Source of the DNA: Anaerotruncus sp.
GTDB lineage: Bacteria; Bacillota; Clostridia; Oscillospirales; Ruminococcaceae
Length of the DNA: 64,000 nucleotides
NCBI GenBank assembly: GCA_021770005.1
Contig: JAETRV010000006.1
Span: 4,372 to 68,371, forward strand
Reading direction: 5' to 3'
Shown: in pieces, positions 15,251-24,160 of the stretch
Position numbering within the stretch: the first letter of the stretch is position 1
Layout of the letters: each line of letters starts with the position of its first letter
Translations under genes and position numbers: made by a program
Notes under the pieces: generated by a model
The model's input: the letters and a program-made list of their open reading frames with translations, nothing else
Databases searched by the model: none
What the model was told of the DNA's origin: nothing

Positions 15251-15309
15251 GTTACAAAGTGGTTACAAAACGGTAACAGATGCGGGCCAAAAATAACAAA
15301 CCGGTAACA
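15251..15309. promoter_or_regulatory. phased hexamer boxes (GTTACA / TGTAAC), candidate OmpR/WalR-type response-regulator site
   Basis: GTTACA at 15251 and 15262, GTAACA at 15273 (exact 11-bp phasing); ATAACA at 15293 and GTAACA at 15304 (11 bp apart). On the other strand these read TGTAAC-N5-TGTAAC-N5-TGTTAC. Confidence 0.4.
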
Positions 15310-15340
15310 AGCCATCCGCGTGGGATTCTCCTGGCCTTTT

Positions 15341-15679
15341 TCAGCTGATATAATCCTCAATCAGAGCGGTGAGCTTCTGGTAATCCTCCACCCGGACCCC
15401 CCGTTCCAGCTCCTTCTGGTCATATTCAGGGAGTGACTGCACATAAACATCAAACACAAGATCCGGCTCAACCAGATCATCTGTAAAGACTGCGAGCTTG
15501 CCATCATAAGCACGCAACAGATAAGGATAACCGGAAGTATCCTTACGGGCGGGGGGCTGCGGCTCACTGGAAGCCACCAGCTCGGGCGGAGCCTCCACCG
15601 GGGACGAATGTGCTGCCGCAATCGTGATGATCGAAACCAACACCACTCCGATTAAGGTCAATAATATCGCATTTCTCAT
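15341..15679 (-). CDS. membrane-anchored hypothetical protein
   Basis: ORF 15341..15748 trimmed to ATG 15679 (GAGGTG upstream). MRNAILLTLIGVVLVSIITIAAA is a signal anchor, followed by a small soluble domain. Confidence 0.55.
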   Translation of the reverse strand: MRNAILLTLIGVVLVSIITIAAAHSSPVEAPPELVASSEPQPPARKDTSGYPYLLRAYDGKLAVFTDDLVEPDLVFDVYVQSLPEYDQKELERGVRVEDYQKLTALIEDYIS

Positions 15680-15931
15680 TCGGAAACACCTCAATCTATT
15701 TTTGAAACTGGGTTTAAACAGTAAGGCCACAAGCCGCTCCAGGGGCATAGCGGCTGACCCTATTTTTGACGGGGTTTGGATGAAATATACAGTCTGGCAA
15801 CTTTTCCATTATAATATAGAAGCTTCCTCGAAATTTCGTTTAAAAAATGGTAACACTTTATCACGGAAGTGTGCTATACTATAATGGTTGTTAAGACCCC
15901 ATCCTTTTGGACAGGAGGAGATTCCCTACCG

Positions 15932-18205
15932 ATGAGTGCTCATAAGAAACGACGTTCGGCCGGCAGCATGATCGCGGCAGCGTTCGGAAACTTTTTCCGG
16001 TTTATCGCTGCGTTGATTATGGTCATGATTATTACCGGCTGTATTGTCGCATCGGTACTAACCGTCTACATCCTGCGCTATATCAACGCAGATGAACAGA
16101 TCACGTTGGACGATGTGACAATGAAATACACCTCTATTATTTATGCGGGTGACGAGGTCGATCCAGAGACCGGCCTGCCTAAAGAACTGCAACAGCTCCA
16201 AACCGCAGAAAACCGCATCCCGATCAAAGACTACTCGGAAATCCCCAAGCATATGGTGGATGCACTGGTTTCAATCGAGGATAAGCGGTTTTGGGAACAC
16301 CACGGTGTGGACTGGAAACGTACGGTTGGTGCGGCCGTCAACCTATTTATCCCCTCGCGGGCCTCGTTCGGTGGTTCGTCCATTACCCAGCAGCTGATTA
16401 AGAACATCACCGGTGACGACGATTACCGGATCGAACGCAAGGTGCAGGAGATTTTCCGCGCCCTCAAGCTCGAACAGCACTACTCCAAGGAGCAGATTGT
16501 CACCGCCTACCTGAATGTGGTATTCTTTTCCAACCACGCCTATGGCGCGAAAGCTGCGGCAAACACCTATTTCGCGAAGGACCTTTCCGATCTTTCGCTC
16601 GCCGAGTGTGCGTCGATCATCGCAATTACCAACTACCCTACCTATTATAATCCGCTGCTCTATCCGGAACACAACAAGGAACGTCAGGAGTTCATCCTGT
16701 GGGAGATGCTCGACCAAGGGCGGATCACCCAAAAAGAGTATGAGGATGCGATCAATGAAGAGCTGGTGTTCCATACCGAGGTCGCACAGGCGCAGGTCTC
16801 GCCGGTCTACAGCTATTTTGTGGACCACGTGATCGAAGAGGTCATCGATGACCTGATGGACGAATATGGCTACACCTATGAAACCGCCCAGCAGATGGTC
16901 AACGGCGGCGGCCTGCGCATCTATACCACCATTGATACCCAGATGCAGGATTGGGTGACCCAGTATTATAGCGATGTCGCCAATTTCCCCGCAGTCGGAA
17001 ACGCGACCTACCCACAGTCGGCCTGCGTGATTACCGATCCAAATGGCAAGGTGCTTGCCATGGCGGGCGGGATCGGCGAGAAGAAAGGGATGCGTGAATT
17101 CAACCGCGCAACCGGCATGACCCGTCAATGTGGATCTTCGATCAAACCGATCGCCGCCTATCTCCAGGCAATCGAAAACGACATTGTCACCTGGTCCACC
17201 AAGCTGGACGACACCCCGGTAAAATCCAGCGCGAAAGCGGCGGGCGGCGAGGAGGAAAATGACGAGGAAAGCCTGAAAAATCTGGTTGGCTGGCCGGTCA
17301 ACCACTACCGCACCTACCTCGGCCCGATTACGATCGACGAGGCGATCCAGCGCTCTACCAATACCATCCCGGTCAAGCTGGTAGAGCTGGTCACCCCGCG
17401 CAAGGTGTTCGATTTCCTGCACGACAAGCTTGGAATGGAAACACTCGTGGACCGGTATGTCTCGAACGGCGTGGTCTTTTCGGATGTTGACCTCTTCCCA
17501 ATGGCGCTCGGCGGTCTGACCAACGGCGTTTCTCCGCTGGAAATGGCGGGCGCTTATCAGATTTTCGCCAATGGCGGCTATTTCACCAAACCATACTCCT
17601 ATACCCGGGTGCTCGATGCGACCGGCGACCTCATCCTTGAGAAGGACACCACCCCACGCCGGGTGATCTCGGAGGAAACCGCGACCATCATCAACAAACT
17701 GATGCAGCGGGTCACCGGAGGCCCTTACGGTACCGGTACCACCGCCCGCTTCCAGCAGGTGCAGGGAATCCCGGTCGCGGGCAAGACCGGCACCACCGAT
17801 GACGACCGCGACCAGTGGTTCATGGGGATCACTCCATACTATGTCACAGCGGTCTGGCTCGGCTTTGATACACCCGAGCGGATCACCTACTACAGCTATC
17901 CGCCACCGATCATCTACCGCCAACTGATGGAACCGCTCCATCAGAACCTCGAACCAAAGGATTTCCCGGTTTCAGACCTGGTTGAGGAAAAGACCTACTG
18001 TGTCGAGAGCGGCGGTATTGCAGGGGGCGAATGCAGCACTGTTGCGACCGGCTGGTATAAAAAATCCTATGATGGCGGGCCTTGCAATGCGATGCATGGG
18101 AGCAGTTCGATCAATCTGGATGATGACGACCGTTCTTCCACCGTCAAACGCCCCAACCGGCGCAAAACCCAGAGCGGCCTCACCATCATTGATAATGATG
18201 ACTAA
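15932..18205 (+). CDS. class A penicillin-binding protein (glycosyltransferase GT51 + transpeptidase)
   Basis: ORF 15869..18205 trimmed to ATG 15932 (AGGAGGAG upstream). Motifs: EDKRFWEHHGVDW, GGSSITQQLIKN, SSIKP, KTGTTD. Confidence 0.9.
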   Translation: MSAHKKRRSAGSMIAAAFGNFFRFIAALIMVMIITGCIVASVLTVYILRYINADEQITLDDVTMKYTSIIYAGDEVDPETGLPKELQQLQTAENRIPIKDYSEIPKHMVDALVSIEDKRFWEHHGVDWKRTVGAAVNLFIPSRASFGGSSITQQLIKNITGDDDYRIERKVQEIFRALKLEQHYSKEQIVTAYLNVVFFSNHAYGAKAAANTYFAKDLSDLSLAECASIIAITNYPTYYNPLLYPEHNKERQEFILWEMLDQGRITQKEYEDAINEELVFHTEVAQAQVSPVYSYFVDHVIEEVIDDLMDEYGYTYETAQQMVNGGGLRIYTTIDTQMQDWVTQYYSDVANFPAVGNATYPQSACVITDPNGKVLAMAGGIGEKKGMREFNRATGMTRQCGSSIKPIAAYLQAIENDIVTWSTKLDDTPVKSSAKAAGGEEENDEESLKNLVGWPVNHYRTYLGPITIDEAIQRSTNTIPVKLVELVTPRKVFDFLHDKLGMETLVDRYVSNGVVFSDVDLFPMALGGLTNGVSPLEMAGAYQIFANGGYFTKPYSYTRVLDATGDLILEKDTTPRRVISEETATIINKLMQRVTGGPYGTGTTARFQQVQGIPVAGKTGTTDDDRDQWFMGITPYYVTAVWLGFDTPERITYYSYPPPIIYRQLMEPLHQNLEPKDFPVSDLVEEKTYCVESGGIAGGECSTVATGWYKKSYDGGPCNAMHGSSSINLDDDDRSSTVKRPNRRKTQSGLTIIDNDD

Positions 18206-18284: not shown

Positions 18285-18835
18285 TCCAAGCCCCCCCTCT
18301 TGTGGAAACCCCTCTCTGGCAGCGCGCTCGTTTGATCCCAGAGCAAAACAACGCGCTTCGCTTAGGGTATGCCGCCGAGCGGCATGGGGATGCGGGGAGT
18401 CCGCCCCCGCGCGGCGGATTGCTTTTCGGATGCACGAAAAGCAATCAAAAGTGCACGTAAGGGGAGAGCCCCTTACGTATCCCCCAAGCCCCCAGACGAA
18501 GCGCTCATGCTCAAGGCTGACTTGCACCATTGGATGCCCCCAAGCGTCCAAAGATAGATAGAACGGACAAAGCACCCAGCCCGGAAGGGTGAGGACTCCC
18601 CCGGCAAGCTGGGTGGGGAAGCAGGGCGCCAAAGCTTGTCGGGGTGGGGCCTACGGGGAGGGGTCGCCGACCCCTAGCCCGTAAGACAGCCCGCAAGGGG
18701 CGTCGCGCGAAGCGCGCTTCGGCGTTAGCCGAGAAGCCCCGAGGAAGGCGCCTTGCGCCTGAAAGTTTGGTCAGGGGCCAAACTTTCGCTGTCAAAAAGT
18801 GCCCGCACCTGTGGAGGCAGGCGCGGGCATCTAGT
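18285..18835. repeat. GC-rich hairpin-module tract 4
   Basis: ttgcttttcg-gatgca-cgaaaagcaa at 18419-18444; gtaagggg-agag-ccccttac. 18586-18800 is an inverted, diverged copy of 7735-7950. Confidence 0.75.
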
Positions 18836-18852
18836 GCAACTTGATATAGGAG

Positions 18853-20061
18853 TTATCTGGAAACTTTTTTGAAAGCAACCGCGCCGGCAGCGGCCAGTGT
18901 GCCGATTCCGCCAAGGATCGCGGCTGTGACCATATCAGAGCCACCGGTCGAAGGAACCGGCTTTTTCAGGCTGACTTTTTCAATGATATCATCCTGTACC
19001 GCATCGAGATCCAGCTCGGTATCCGAAACGATATAGTTGGTCAGCTTGCGGGTCTTGATGCTCCATCCCTCAATATCATCCCAGTTTTCATAGTAGGTAA
19101 ACTCACTGGTAATATCAGAGAGGGTGCCGTCCGAATTGCGGGTGTAGATGTAAACGTTTTTCGGGTTCAGCGCGTTGTCCGAATCGGTATCCCACGGCAC
19201 ACCCAGTGTCAGGGTCGCGCGGGAAGTGGAAGGAACGGTCGGCGCGCCAACAAAAGTATAGAACCAGAGCTCTGCACCTACCGGGTCCGCATACTTGCGG
19301 TAGATCTCGCTATCCGCCTTGGTGGAGAGCTTCGCATAGAACTTGGATGCTTCGCTGCTCGCGTCAAACCGGAGGGTCGCCATCTCGCCCCACGAGATAT
19401 AGTTTTCGTCGTTGGATTCAGGCTTGAAGATAAACGCGTCGCCTGCTTCCGCGTCGGCGGAGGAACCCGACATTTCATCGTTGCTGATCCAGAAGGTCAG
19501 CTCATACTCCGCGGTATCGTATGTATCTACCGAAACACCGTTGTCCACCAGGATATCCTTGTAAACGCTGGTGGCAATATCCCCGGCATTGACATACTTG
19601 CGGGGCTTGAACGTCACTTCTACAGTCGCTTTTTTCTCCCCGGCTTCATGGGTGGAGCCGGTGGAAACCTTCAGATAAGCGGTGCGCCTATCGGGCGTAC
19701 TTCCGCCGAGGTTTTTGCCGTTGACCAGCTCAACCGATTTGATCAGCGAGCGGCCTTCCCCTTTTTTGGATGCTTTGAAGCTGAAGAGGCTGCCGTCCCC
19801 CAGCTTATTGATTGCATTGGCATTTGCGCCGCTGTCCTTTACCTGATAGGTGGAGCCGTCCCGTTTGGTAAAGGTGATGCTGGAGTCAAGGTCTTCAACC
19901 GGGATATAGTAGGTGCTGTCCGGGCGGACTTCGTCAAACACCAGCCCATTTCCAGAGAGTGTCAGGTCACCATGGCTGTTATACGCATCGGCGGCAAGGG
20001 CGGATACCCCCATACCAGCAACCAGCGCAACGGCCATCACGCAGGAAAGGATTCTCTTCAT
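18853..20061 (-). CDS. sortase-anchored cell-surface protein
   Basis: ORF 18853..20121 trimmed to ATG 20061 (AAAGGAGG upstream). Signal peptide MKRILSCVMAVALVAGMGVSALA. C-terminal sorting signal VPSTGG, then a hydrophobic stretch and KKVSR. Confidence 0.75.
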   Translation of the reverse strand: MKRILSCVMAVALVAGMGVSALAADAYNSHGDLTLSGNGLVFDEVRPDSTYYIPVEDLDSSITFTKRDGSTYQVKDSGANANAINKLGDGSLFSFKASKKGEGRSLIKSVELVNGKNLGGSTPDRRTAYLKVSTGSTHEAGEKKATVEVTFKPRKYVNAGDIATSVYKDILVDNGVSVDTYDTAEYELTFWISNDEMSGSSADAEAGDAFIFKPESNDENYISWGEMATLRFDASSEASKFYAKLSTKADSEIYRKYADPVGAELWFYTFVGAPTVPSTSRATLTLGVPWDTDSDNALNPKNVYIYTRNSDGTLSDITSEFTYYENWDDIEGWSIKTRKLTNYIVSDTELDLDAVQDDIIEKVSLKKPVPSTGGSDMVTAAILGGIGTLAAAGAVAFKKVSR

Positions 20062-20349
20062 TCGTAATTTGCCTCCTTTGAAAAATCCAGCTTTGAAATC
20101 GTAACCAACAGGGTCCTCCAATCCCTCTCTGTTACATTTCCAAGTATAACTATTTGTATATTCAATGTCAAGGCGTTCTACTTTCCAAATTATTCATATT
20201 GCACTATATATGCACCCATTTAGCCAATATATTCCGTCTATACTGCTGAATTATTCCAATAAAAAGGACTTTTATGAAAAGGCTGCCTCCATTTCCTAAT
20301 ATATTTATATACTTTAAGTATTATTTTCCTGTCCTACCAAATATTTTGG

Positions 20350-20388
20350 AAACAACACAAAGCCCCGCTGTGTTACCACAGCGGGGCT
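20350..20388 (-). terminator. intrinsic terminator ending the orphan 630-nt unit
   Basis: 12-bp stem agccccgctgtg/cacagcggggct with loop ttac, followed on the minus strand by UUUGUGUUGUUU. Confidence 0.7.
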
Positions 20389-20979
20389 TACATTTCCATA
20401 TACCCGCGCACAGGGCGGTTGGAGAGACCCGTCCCGTTTTGAGGGTTGCGTGCGGCTGCCCGGAGGGGACCCCCGCATACCTGAGGATTCCAGCCAACTT
20501 TGCAGCCTGCTTTCCACCTCGGGCTGGGCTTGCATGTGATACCGTTCCTCCAGCCTCCATCCCCTCCGGGCCAGACAGCAGCCTTTTGTTGACTGCTGTA
20601 TCCGGAAGGCATAAAAGGTCTATACGGTGAAACATACTTCCCACCGAATCCTGCTTCACAGGACCCGGCTGTTCAATTTGTCGCACGCGAAACCAACTCA
20701 GGGTCAGGCTCGCGAGAACTTGTCCGCGTGCTTTCGCTTGCGCTGGGTACGCGGGCGGATGCAAAGCGCCACTCCCCACTTTCCAACCGTCAGAAAGCTG
20801 TTCTGTGCGAACACGATCCAGATTTCCTCCCAGCTGGGTCCGCAGGATGTGATGCTGTAAACCCGGATGGTCAAATGTCGGTCAAGCCTCCTCCGAAGAG
20901 AAAACCTCCCATGCCCAGTTGTCCTTCCGGAAGCAATCAGTTCTGTCAACGACTGGAACCCTCCGTTCCATTGATTGCT
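20350..20979 (-). ncRNA. candidate large non-coding RNA (family unknown) or decayed gene
   Basis: Bounded by a consensus promoter (20986-21014) and a terminator (20350-20388). No ORF has an RBS. Local helices include GNRA-capped elements (ccgcgt...gcGCAAgcGAAAgc...acgcgg at 20724-20753). Helix ccuuccgg/ccggaggg around acagcag/cugcugu (20562-20609) has a G-U pair only if read on the minus strand. Confidence 0.4.
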
Positions 20980-20985
20980 GAATTT

Positions 20986-21014
20986 ATTATACCTCGAATC
21001 AGACGGAAAGTCAA
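20986..21014 (-). promoter_or_regulatory. near-consensus sigma-70 promoter
   Basis: On the minus strand: TTGACT (21014-21009), 17-nt spacer, TATAAT (20991-20986). Confidence 0.65.
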
Positions 21015-21021
21015 TCCATTT

Positions 21022-21069
21022 TGTAACCGTTTTGTAACTTTTATAATCTTTTTGTAACCGGTTTGTAAT
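21022..21069. promoter_or_regulatory. phased TGTAAC boxes abutting the -35 of the orphan promoter
   Basis: TGTAAC at 21022, TGTAAC at 21033, TATAAT at 21042, TGTAAC at 21053, TGTAAT at 21064. Spacing is 11, 9, 11, 11 bp. Confidence 0.4.
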
Positions 21070-21374
21070 TGTTTCCGCCCGTTGTACCTCTGTTCGACCT
21101 TTTTCTGCCCTTCTTACCGGCTTCCTGAGCGCTCGCCAATGACCCATGATGAAAAGATTTATGTCCATATTTCACACTCTGTTCAAAAAAAGATGCTATA
21201 ATATCCGCAAAGTAGCTATTATACCGGGCTTATGGCCAGAACGATTCGCGGGCAGCCGCCTGCTCCCGTTCCAATGGCCAATTATAGCATCTCGCTGCGC
21301 TTCATGCTATAATAGCAGTTGTGGAGTGGTATGTTATGCTTTTGCAAATAGTCTGATATTACGGGAGGATCATC

Positions 21375-22418
21375 ATGATATTAAAACGGTTTCTTGCTTT
21401 ATTCTGTGCATTCGCTGTTCTGCTCGGCGGATGTGGAAAGGAGGATTCCACACCTGAAAACCCAGAGGAGACATCTTCTGTCTCAGAATCGGAAGAGACG
21501 GAAGCGCCCGAATCGGAACCTGATGCGTCTGATACAGAGTCTGATCCGAGTTCCGATGCATCCGAGACGGCGGACGAAAGCAGCGCGGAGGCTTCCTCTG
21601 GTGAAGCGGATGCCGAACCGGTTCCGGAACAGCCGAAATCCCCTCCTCGCGTCTCGCTTTCCAACCGCATCATTGAACTGGGCGAGGTATTGGTTTTGCA
21701 CATCTCCAATGTGGAAAGTTCAGAGGTCGTTGCTGACACGGATCTCCCACACAATTCCCTGTTCTATCCGGATGGCGACGGTCTGACCGTCCTACTCCCG
21801 ATCTCCTATAATGAAACGCCGGGTAATTATACCCTTTCGATTCAGGCGCGGGATAAAACATTTGACTATACGATTATGGTGGCTGACCGGGAGTTTGAGA
21901 TTCAAAACCTCACCATCTCTGAATCTACAGTTGGTTCGACCAATACCGCAGAGGCGAATCAGGAATGGGAACAGAAAATTGAACCGCTCAAAATGCTTGC
22001 AAGCCCAGACAAATACTGGGAAGGACTTTTTATGCAGCCTGTGCAGGGAGAGATCACCACTGAATTTGGCAGCATCCGTTATACCAATGGTTCTGCAACC
22101 TCGACCCGGCATAGCGGCATCGACATCGCGGCTGCCCAGGGCACACCAGTCGCAGCCGCCAACAATGGAAAAATCCTTTTTGCAGATTTTTTGCAGCTCA
22201 CCGGGAATACGGTTGTGATTGACCATGGATTTGGCCTCAAGAGCTTCTATTACCATATGGATTCCCTGGATGTCAAGGAGGGGGATATGGTGAAAACGGG
22301 AGATATCGTGGGTGCAGTTGGCTCCACAGGCTATTCGACCGGACCTCACCTCCACTACAGTTTGTTGGTAAACAATGTGTTTATCAATCCATGGACCGCA
22401 TTTGAATCTGGGATATAA
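21375..22418 (+). CDS. M23-family metallopeptidase lipoprotein (LytM-like cell-wall hydrolase)
   Basis: 347 aa. Lipobox LLGGCGK, an acidic Ser/Glu/Asp linker, then HSGIDIAA...GNTVVIDHG...GSTGYSTGPHLHYSL. Confidence 0.85.
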   Translation: MILKRFLALFCAFAVLLGGCGKEDSTPENPEETSSVSESEETEAPESEPDASDTESDPSSDASETADESSAEASSGEADAEPVPEQPKSPPRVSLSNRIIELGEVLVLHISNVESSEVVADTDLPHNSLFYPDGDGLTVLLPISYNETPGNYTLSIQARDKTFDYTIMVADREFEIQNLTISESTVGSTNTAEANQEWEQKIEPLKMLASPDKYWEGLFMQPVQGEITTEFGSIRYTNGSATSTRHSGIDIAAAQGTPVAAANNGKILFADFLQLTGNTVVIDHGFGLKSFYYHMDSLDVKEGDMVKTGDIVGAVGSTGYSTGPHLHYSLLVNNVFINPWTAFESGI

Positions 22419-22443
22419 GCACTGATAAAACCCATCTGAAAAA

Positions 22444-22473
22444 ACGGCGCAGCCTTTGGTTGCGCCGTTTTTT
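22444..22473 (+). terminator. intrinsic terminator after the M23 gene
   Basis: Stem acggcgca/tgcgccgt followed by TTTTTT. Confidence 0.75.
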
Positions 22474-22538
22474 CAGACTTTTTGCCACATGTGATTTAGA
22501 GTCCCTACAAAAAAAGATAGAAAATTAAAAAATAGGGC

Positions 22539-22567
22539 TTGCAATTTAGATTGGTATGTGCTATACT
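22539..22567 (+). promoter_or_regulatory. promoter of tRNA-fMet
   Basis: TTGCAA (22539-22544), 17-nt spacer, TGcTATACT extended -10 (TATACT at 22562-22567). Confidence 0.55.
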
Positions 22568-22602
22568 AATCGAGTACTAAAAATTGTGCAAAAAGTGGAT
22601 AT

Positions 22603-22679
<77 letters not shown>

Positions 22680-22871
22680 AAAGACCCGCATGGCAAGCCG
22701 CTTTGCGGGTTTTCTCTTGCCATTTTTCCCTCACAATTTTGTTGCAGTAGGGATTTTTTTACTCGTTAGGAAGAAGTGCAGCAAAAGTGAATAAATTCTG
22801 GGCGGTTTTCAGTGCGATTTGGATTGCTGCACTTTTGTTGCAGCCCTATTTTTTGCCGGGAAAAATCTTCC

Positions 22872-24160
22872 CTACTGTGGAGTGTCCCTACTCGGTTCCT
22901 CTGTCCCCGGAAGGAAACCGCTCATCCGGTCGATGGCCTTCCGCTTTTCATCGTCCAGCACATGAGAGTACCGCTCGGTAGTGACGATGGAGGAGTGGCC
23001 CATAAGGTTCTGGATGATGCGAATGGGGACATTCTGCTCCATCAGTCGGGTGGCGAAGGTATGCCTGAGTGCGTGGACATTGACCCCTTGCAGCTCGCAC
23101 CGTTTGCAGACCGCCTGTACCCGTTTCTGGTAGGTTCGGGGGTCGGTGTAGATCCCCCGCTTGGAGGGGAAGATGAGGTTTTGGGGATTGGGCTGTCCCT
23201 CGTGAAGCTGAACCTGCCGGTGGAGCATGAGCAGCCGCTAGATGTTTTCATAGACCGGCGTTTCCCGGTTGCTGGTTTTGCTCTTAGGGGTCTCCTGGAG
23301 GATCAGCTCGGTCTTTTTGCCGGATGGGTCGTCAAAGAGCTGCACCCGTTCCAGATCCTTGCAGATACGGATGGTCCGCTTCTTCTCGTTGAGGTCGCCC
23401 CACTCCAACGGTAATATTTCCCCATCCTCGCCCCCGTAAAGAGGGAAAGGAGCATTGCCACCCGCAGGCGCTCGGAGAAGATTTCCTTGATGAAAATTTC
23501 CATCTCCTCCACCGTCAGCACCCGGCGTTCGGTGGGCTGAACCTCCGGGAGCCGAAGCTCGGCGGCGGGGTTTTCAATGATGATCTTCCCCCTGGCTTTC
23601 TCCAAGGCGGCATTCAGCACCACGAAGATGTTGTAGATGCTCTTGGGAGAAAGCCCGCCTTTCCTGTCCAGTCGCCCATTGGTTTGCAGAAAGTTGAGAT
23701 AGGTCTGCATATCAGCATCGGTCACTTTGTTCAGCGGCGTCTGGCCGAAGAAGGGCAATATCTGTGTCTGGTAAGTCTGCATATAGGAAGAATAAGTGGT
23801 GCGCTTCACCGAAGGCGGGGTCTTGTAGGTCTGGATAAAGTACAGCACCCAGTCGGAAAGGGAGATGTCTATGTCGATCCCCGCCGGGGGTTTCAATCCG
23901 AGGGGCGCACCTGCCAGCATCCGGTAGGCTTCCTGCTGGCGCTGTCCCCGAATTTCCTTCACCCGTTTCAAGAACTCCTTGTACTTTTTGGCAAGCTGCT
24001 CCTCGGTCTTGCCGGTGAAGGTCACCCGCCGGTATTTGTCGTTCTCATCGGTCTCATATTTCTGGAAAATGAGGTATCCATCCTTGCGGAGATAGAGGGT
24101 GCCGCCCTCGAAAATCTTGGCGTGTTTGGACGAAGGCGTGTAGCTTTTACTTTCTGCCAT
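22872..24160 (-). pseudogene. int: tyrosine recombinase/integrase, disrupted
   Basis: The N-terminal part is ORF 23303..24160 and the C-terminal part is ORF 22872..23228 (HALRHTFATRL...LMGHSSIVTTERYSHV). The frame is lost in the G4 run (plus-strand C4 at 23420-23423), where ...GARMG should continue EILPLEWGDLNEKKRTIRI... There is also an in-frame TAG at 23240-23238. Confidence 0.8.

Follow-up and report, generated by a model that had tools for sequence, protein, structure and literature searches.

A large structured RNA in a small clade of gut Anaerotruncus, probably a noncoding gene of its own that appears co-regulated with cell-surface proteins

Among described bacterial RNAs, the closest to the one reported here are OLE, ROOL, and GOLLD (RF01071, RF03087, and RF01998), large ornate RNAs whose function was long obscure and which were recently shown to be homo-oligomers (PMC12286853). 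Also relevant are the cia-dependent csRNAs of streptococci, which are regulator dependent and have been proposed to pair with Shine-Dalgarno (SD) regions (PMC3091779); the WalR regulon, for which the consensus TGTWAH-N5-TGTWAH has been published (PMC9210968); and the 5' stabilizers of Bacillota, which comprise 5'-terminal stem-loops and STAB-SD elements (PMC4113751).

The locus described here was found in a 64,000-nucleotide stretch of DNA from Anaerotruncus sp. (GenBank assembly GCA_021770005.1, contig JAETRV010000006.1), hereafter the window. It occupies a gap flanked by two genes, one on the minus strand for a secreted, wall-anchored protein and one on the plus strand for an M23 peptidase (21375-22418). 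We consider this minus-strand unit of ~628 nt to be a discrete, stand-alone, regulator-controlled gene for a stable and highly structured noncoding RNA (ncRNA), a reading to which we assign a probability of roughly 0.7. With OLE, ROOL, and GOLLD it shares the ~600-nt size class, the stand-alone organization from promoter to terminator, the many helices around a closed core, the occurrence in anaerobic Bacillota, and the lack of an ORF; we also noted as common ground its own complementary invariant loops, GGAGG and CCUCC, which might mediate loop-loop contacts. Unlike those RNAs, however, it is unmatched by their covariance models at an E value of 10, is limited to three close lineages instead of being distributed phylum-wide, and is absent from the phage and plasmid collections; and oligomerization, which has been shown for them, is speculation for the RNA described here. 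OLE RNA has a genomic association with oapA/oapB; the present RNA adjoins genes for an LPXTG-type surface protein and an M23 peptidase.

The csRNAs offer a second comparison. As in these and other envelope-stress small RNAs controlled by OmpR-family regulators, the promoter abuts an OmpR-family-type direct repeat of the form hexamer-N5-hexamer, at which binding is predicted only, and, as with the csRNAs, the RNA would belong to an envelope regulon and carries anti-SD sequences in loops predicted to be unpaired. In contrast, at ~628 nt and with more than 10 helices it is roughly four to six times longer than the csRNAs, which are shorter than ~200 nt and have two stem-loops; there is no sequence homology between them, the boxes are WalR-like (TGTAAC) rather than of the csRNA type (TTTAAG), and targets are predicted no better than by chance.

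The proposed borders of the gene and the features discussed below are collected in Table 1. The promoter that the sequence-only reading had assigned to this RNA was borne out, being the best promoter-like site within positions 18500 to 23000, and the TSS was placed from it at A20979, 7 nt past the −10 hexamer. At the other end, the strong hairpin and U-rich tail of the terminator also stood, the stem comprising 13 bp rather than the 12 bp first counted; it is followed by the tail TGTGTTGTTT, in which the U-tract is interrupted. In the related genome of Anaerotruncus sp. G3(2012), one A-U pair and one G-C pair of this stem have each become G-U, changes that keep the pairing on the minus strand alone. 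The G+C content of the RNA stretch is 54 to 59%, that of the flanking spacers is 36 to 46%, and the genome mean is 56%. Plotting the ORF-free gaps of the entire genome against their G+C content proved too coarse a means of ranking the region.

Table 1. Features of the RNA locus and its surroundings (window coordinates unless a contig is named)
Feature	Position	Strand	Remarks
Sigma-70-type promoter, TTGACT-17-TATAAT	20986..21014	-	11/12 matches; both hexamers invariant in three lineages; spacer and discriminator vary
Predicted ncRNA body, ~628 nt	20352..20979	-	3' end in U-rich tail; both ends placed from promoter and terminator
Intrinsic terminator	20350..20389	-	13-bp stem (20389-20360), 9/13 pairs G-C; 4-nt loop GUAA; U-rich tail
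Five phased boxes, GTTACA-like towards the RNA (TGTAAC-N5-TGTAAC on the plus strand)	21022..21069	-	Last box ends 7 nt upstream of −35
Box loci in the window genome (n = 4)	21022-21069; C6:1634-1661 (L139); C155:4974-4990 (L140); 15251-15310		
Separate promoter of the surface-protein gene, TTGACA-17-TATACT	20143..20171	-	Context, outside the RNA
5'-terminal stem-loop domain	20932..20979	-	AGCAAUC/GAUUGCU helix from first transcribed base; encloses 6-bp hairpin with 5-nt loop GGAGG (20960-20964)
Variable long hairpin arm	20862..20931	-	UUCG or UUUU tip; UUUCUC vs GAGGAG, GGGAGG, or GGGAAA across three lineages
Branched or irregular arm	20765..20856	-	Most compensatory changes; double changes at alignment A2 pairs 133-212, 156-190, 160-187, and 170-177
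Central multi-helix core	20402..20756	-	Predicted; nearly invariant 10-bp long-range closing helix 20747-20756/20402-20411
Long arm with 8-bp helix 20602-20609/20562-20569	20526..20642	-	Inner 9-bp hairpin with loop AACAAAA; covariation
Hairpin with CCUCC (20462-20466) as 5-nt loop	20451..20477	-	Loop invariant; stem U-G to C-G and U-A to U-G
Invariant hairpin with 10-nt loop GUCUCUCCAA (20419-20428)	20413..20435	-	Predicted

All carriers of the RNA belong to a small clade of gut Anaerotruncus. It was found only in the window genome, in Anaerotruncus sp. G3(2012) and its strains, and on one Logan contig (L148), and in all three lineages the gene order is surface-protein gene, RNA, boxes, and M23 gene. 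G3(2012) (NZ_KE159668.1), the sole species-representative genome with a homolog, carries it at full length and with 84 to 85% identity, and the RNA of the Logan contig is 87% identical to that of the window and 93% identical to that of G3(2012). This third lineage and the G3-type strain variants (L142 to L147; 99.7% identity) were reached by following the neighboring proteins through a large protein collection. BLAST and nhmmer searches of 17 congeners and 400 genomes of the family returned one true homolog, that of G3(2012), and nothing in the 16 other congeners; the short matches in the 400-genome sample were chance ones inside unrelated DNA. A covariance model built on the 221-nt core (R1) recovered nothing further from 18 genus genomes, and an exact-pattern scan of a genome-contig collection returned G3(2012) only. 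The corresponding scan of metagenomes yielded one contig with an nhmmer score equal to that of G3(2012), called a G3-type copy, and 16 others that were set aside as chance matches without similarity to the RNA; all of the viral-contig matches (22/22) were likewise due to chance, and the phage and plasmid collections gave no match. A second copy was not found in the window genome. Neither RNA nor boxes are present in the short spacers upstream of the M23 orthologs of the other congeners or in the spacer of ~350 nt in a lineage whose M23 protein is 74% identical. The RNA is also missing from a contig with a surface-protein variant 94.5% identical to that of the window (L141), because this contig is cut off 44 nt upstream of the gene.

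Several further observations concern the surroundings and variants of the locus. Colinearity with the G3 lineage stops just downstream of the surface-protein gene (position 18794 leftwards), where the left neighbor is a PBP locus in the window and a chemotaxis-receptor gene in G3(2012), the shared block consisting only of the surface gene, the RNA, and the M23 gene. Upstream of the M23 gene lie three GATGCTATAAT-like extended −10 elements, at 21193-21202 (plus strand), 21304-21313 (plus strand), and 21281-21291 (minus strand), and positions 21204 to 21350 have no alignment with the G3 lineage. Two G3-type metagenome contigs, L151 (1008/1009) and L153 (1067/1068), carry internal RNA deletions of 20 nt and 25 nt, and at least one of these contigs is of low coverage (L153, ~3×); the 25-nt deletion lies between GGCTG repeats and takes out one strand of a covarying helix. 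Misassembly may account for these deletions, or they may be natural variants that have lost structure; if real, they would imply that the RNA is dispensable in some strains.

Within this clade, the RNA is under block-wise purifying selection. Between the window and G3(2012), 84% of its positions are identical, compared with fractions of 0.74 and 0.60 at the four-fold sites of the flanking genes, and the conservation is a mosaic, with invariant runs of 43, 39, 35, 34, 29, and 28 nt. When as many substitutions were placed at random 20,000 times, six invariant runs of at least 28 nt never arose, and the first 43 aligned nucleotides are the same in all lineages.

Base pairing is conserved as well, and it is conserved strand specifically, on the minus strand. 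To avoid circularity, the MFE structure was predicted from one lineage alone and then confronted with the substitutions found in another, with substitutions shuffled among like bases as the control. On the sense strand, fractions of 0.63 to 0.70 of the changed pairs stay paired, versus 0.34 to 0.57 in the shuffles, and the observed value was reached by 0 of 2,000 shuffles in four of the five lineage comparisons; double compensatory changes number 7 to 9 in the comparisons with the window, where ~2 are expected. On the antisense strand, the kept fraction in the same test lies at or under the shuffle mean. The MFE z-scores of the sense strand are −3.5 (window) and −4.0 (G3).

In the overall predicted fold, which has more than 10 helices, a stem-loop domain at the 5' end is accompanied by a pair of long arms and by a multi-helix core that a long-range helix closes; the consensus prediction shifted in places once the third lineage was added. 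In the variable arm, G facing C is invariant and the purine facing U alternates between A and G. The core contains invariant runs of 28, 39, 29, 34, and 35 nt. The 8-bp helix with an inner hairpin that had been drawn from the window alone is confirmed by covariation across the three lineages and one strain variant: in this arm, C-G became U-A twice and A-U became G-C, several G-C or A-U pairs became G-U, and a strain-level G-to-A change keeps the pair with U (U-G to U-A). A second element proposed at the same time, a 6-bp helix closing two GNRA-capped hairpins (20724-20753), fares less well; although the helix can be drawn on paper, it shows no variation and is in competition with a long-range pairing, and the second of the two supposed GNRA loops (GAAA) is AAAG or AAAA in the other lineages. 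The sequences CCUCC and CUCUCC lie in invariant predicted loops, and the CCUCC loop is the exact complement of both the GGAGG loop and an SD sequence. Because only three close lineages are available (84 to 93% identity), most core helices and all three of the notable loops are invariant and thus without covariation support.

No known family accounts for this RNA. A scan with Rfam 15 (4,227 models) returned no family at gathering scores or, with permissive filters, at E values up to 10, the models covered including OLE, ROOL, GOLLD, HEARO, raiA, riboswitches, RNase P, tmRNA, 6S, and introns, in agreement with the sequence-only reading, which had recognized no known RNA. The best matches, sar and isrJ, are look-alikes of the terminator only and score far under the gathering thresholds, and a weak match to rsmX (E = 6) was set aside. 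A CsrB-like sponge was considered and rejected, for although GGAGG is enriched, one copy alone lies in a conserved hairpin loop; an 11-nt tetraloop receptor was likewise rejected by eye, UAUGG being present but its partner strand misfitting. On sequence grounds, the RNA is a structured, lineage-restricted family absent from Rfam.

The boxes upstream of the promoter offer a clue to its control. Like the two hexamers, they show no change among the three lineages, in contrast to the variable DNA on their upstream side. Arrays of TGTAAC-N5-TGTAAY boxes occur at four loci in the window genome, against zero with the reversed control. The boxes of contig C6 run in the same direction and end 7 nt from the −35 element, ahead of a secreted paralog of the neighboring surface protein; on contig C155 they lie ahead of another secreted protein, and in four congeners they are found upstream of paralogs of the LPXTG-type surface-protein family. 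Since the same box-promoter geometry precedes the secreted paralog, the RNA appears to be co-regulated with cell-surface proteins, and the arrays look like a genus-wide surface-protein regulon of a putative WalR/OmpR-type regulator. The boxes fit the consensus of WalR (YycF/VicR) exactly, although they would suit any OmpR-family regulator whose half-site is similar, and, as in the WalR regulon, the members identified are proteins that are secreted or anchored to the cell wall, along with a PBP locus. To our knowledge, the WalR regulons described so far consist of protein genes, and the ncRNA differs in this respect.

Two side observations belong to these promoters. The second array in the window (15251-15310), oriented along the plus strand, precedes an extended −10 element, TGaTATAAT (15346-15354). 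A transcript started there would be antisense to a minus-strand ORF for a 135-aa membrane protein (15341-15748) and would head towards a class A PBP gene (15869-18205). Positions 106 to 121 of the RNA (window 20859-20874), TTGACCATCCGGGTTT, match the −35 element and spacer of the C6 paralog promoter (L139:1611-1626) at 15 of 16 positions (E = 0.06), a resemblance that could be left over from the duplication of a promoter region or be due to chance.

The neighboring surface-protein ORF (422 aa) is listed at 18853-20121 on the minus strand with a TTG start and has no Pfam match; translation likely begins at the ATG at 20061 (MKRILS...), which follows AAAGGAGG. Besides a signal peptide, the protein carries at its C terminus a PSTGG sortase-like anchor motif, a hydrophobic stretch, and a basic tail. 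Its family has 5 to 22 copies per genome in the genus, and several copies contain an in-frame TAA.

This gene is central to the alternative that survives best, namely, that the stretch is a long conditional leader, in which case the box promoter would be the ancestral promoter of the surface-protein gene, the RNA would be a cis-acting sensor, and the terminator would be read through under some signal. The RNA does lie 290 nt upstream of the gene on the same strand, its terminator has the interrupted U-tract noted above, and the same boxes sit roughly 100 to 240 nt upstream of the paralogs of that gene in the window genome and in congeners; given this usual distance, the RNA could be an insertion into an old leader. 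However, the gene has its own near-consensus promoter, which, as judged from sequence, is identical in the window and G3(2012) together with the 5' untranslated region and the AAAGGAGG SD sequence, making a pure leader unlikely. Nor was any aptamer family matched in Rfam 15, and the sole upstream segment able to pair with the 5' arm of the terminator (GCGGGG) has been lost in both other lineages, a manual, nonexhaustive check finding no conserved antiterminator pairing with that arm. At 630 nt, moreover, the RNA is several times longer than known riboswitch and attenuator leaders, which we also count against this explanation. The leader option raised by the sequence-only reading is thereby weakened, and we now consider it rather unlikely, such weight as it keeps coming from the type of box promoter.

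Considerably less probable is a decayed gene or mobile-element remnant that is transcribed but has no function of its own. The narrow distribution, the M23 orthologs of other congeners that have no such spacer, the 15/16 resemblance of a 16-nt stretch to the −35 element and spacer of the C6 paralog, and the two metagenome variants with internal deletions would all fit such an origin. Against it, the RNA exceeds the four-fold sites of both neighbors in conservation and contains invariant blocks beyond chance, its substitutions keep pairing on one strand alone, no second genomic copy and no phage, plasmid, or viral-contig match was found, and protein homology is absent; we reject the earlier suggestion of a decayed gene. 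As to protein homology, a Pfam search with six ORFs gave no match, blastx against 167 proteins of the neighboring families gave no homolog, and phmmer with the 152-aa ORF against 1.84 billion proteins gave no homolog, returning three ORF calls on the same RNA locus and one chance match. Two of these, P0169 and P0171, were rejected as distant protein relatives because they are ORF calls on G3-type copies of the same RNA, as P0168 (99% identical) presumably is; P0170 was the chance match, its contig (L152) having no similarity to the RNA. ORFs of 152 to 216 aa have been called over the RNA locus in several assemblies in public protein collections (P0168, P0169, and P0171), and these are most likely false proteins.

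Slightly less probable again is that the transcript encodes one or more small proteins and is thus an mRNA or a dual-function RNA. The three ORFs originally listed (20704..21168, 20321..20779, and 20388..20612) are all present, and the statement that the longest ATG ORFs beginning past the TSS have 29 and 13 codons was mistaken, for both 20388..20612 (74 codons) and 20314..20535 (73 codons) start with ATG past this point. The former is still open in G3(2012), and GGAGG occurs eight times where 1.4 are expected, two points in favor of this reading. Nevertheless, this frame lacks an SD sequence, its ATG is replaced by GTG, and its codon changes comprise 8 synonymous and 21 nonsynonymous ones, distributed 11/8/13 over the codon positions; the 73-codon frame, by reading of the alignment, meets a stop at codon 16 in G3(2012), and the remaining frames are broken there by stops or 1-nt indels. 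GGAGG is kept in all three lineages at two motifs only, and most copies lie inside helices. Over the whole RNA, the 101 substitutions between the window and G3(2012) fall 35/34/32 by position modulo 3, and there are two 1-nt indels. The initial judgment that no ORF here is credible therefore holds, the ORFs breaking or changing as expected without protein-level selection.

Least credible of all is that what is conserved is regulatory DNA, rather than an RNA, serving the divergent genes of the M23 peptidase and the surface protein, for although the stretch does lie between two divergent cell-wall-related genes and the boxes might serve both directions, the signal includes G-U pairs possible on the minus strand only and is absent from the antisense strand, the conserved stretch runs from the predicted TSS to the terminator, and the candidate M23 promoters lie 130 to 240 nt past the boxes, in DNA that is unalignable between lineages. 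A large ncRNA, which was among the options raised at the outset, is thus favored by the strand-specific conservation of structure, the block-wise purifying selection, and the absence of coding signal and protein homology.

As such an ncRNA, the transcript would be switched on together with the cell-surface or envelope regulon, by way of the putative response-regulator boxes (WalR/OmpR-type direct repeats) that adjoin its sigma-70-type promoter, and would act as RNA. Both of its ends are predicted to lie in helices, and the 5' domain, with a 6-bp hairpin 13 nt in that displays GGAGG, would shield it from 5'-to-3' decay; a helix at the first transcribed base, the GGAGG hairpin, and the 3' terminator together suggest the layout of a long-lived Bacillota transcript. 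Like the 5' stabilizers, it is predicted to be helical from the first transcribed nucleotide on, and an SD-like GGAGG occurs less than 20 nt from the 5' end without a start codon for it. Unlike in STAB-SD, however, this GGAGG lies within a 5-nt hairpin loop, where ribosome binding is hypothetical, and the resemblance would explain stability alone and not function.

With respect to function, the invariant loops CCUCC and CUCUCC could pair with the SD regions of target mRNAs, a mode of action that we regard as a possible but unlikely one. When the RNA was compared by RNAduplex with the initiation regions of the M23, 422-aa, PBP, C6, and C155 genes and of the 135-aa ORF, the z-scores ranged from −1.9 to +0.7, no better than shuffles. 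Alternatively, the same loops could pair with the GGAGG loop of the RNA itself, within one molecule or, in the manner of the ornate oligomers, between copies, and such loop-loop self-association seems to us somewhat less probable than the anti-SD mode. The remaining weight goes to some other function at the RNA level. Taking these elements together, we offer as a decidedly tentative proposal that a WalR-type cell-wall two-component regulon, which also comprises sortase-anchored proteins, has among its outputs a new class of large structured RNA, and that this RNA would act via its GGAGG, CCUCC, and CUCUCC loops, either by self-assembly or by clamping the SD regions of envelope mRNAs.

Few bacterial ncRNAs of more than 500 nt with conserved folds have been described, and each class so far has turned out to be unusual. 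Since so few lineages carry the present RNA, its importance in general is limited, and comparisons among them have limited power. G3(2012) has an NCBI strain designation, and if that strain is obtainable and can be grown, the transcript, its regulator, and a knockout may come within reach. The shared regulator-box promoter would tie the RNA to the envelope biology of these gut bacteria and suggests the conditions under which a phenotype might be sought, a clue that the other classes of large ncRNA lack.
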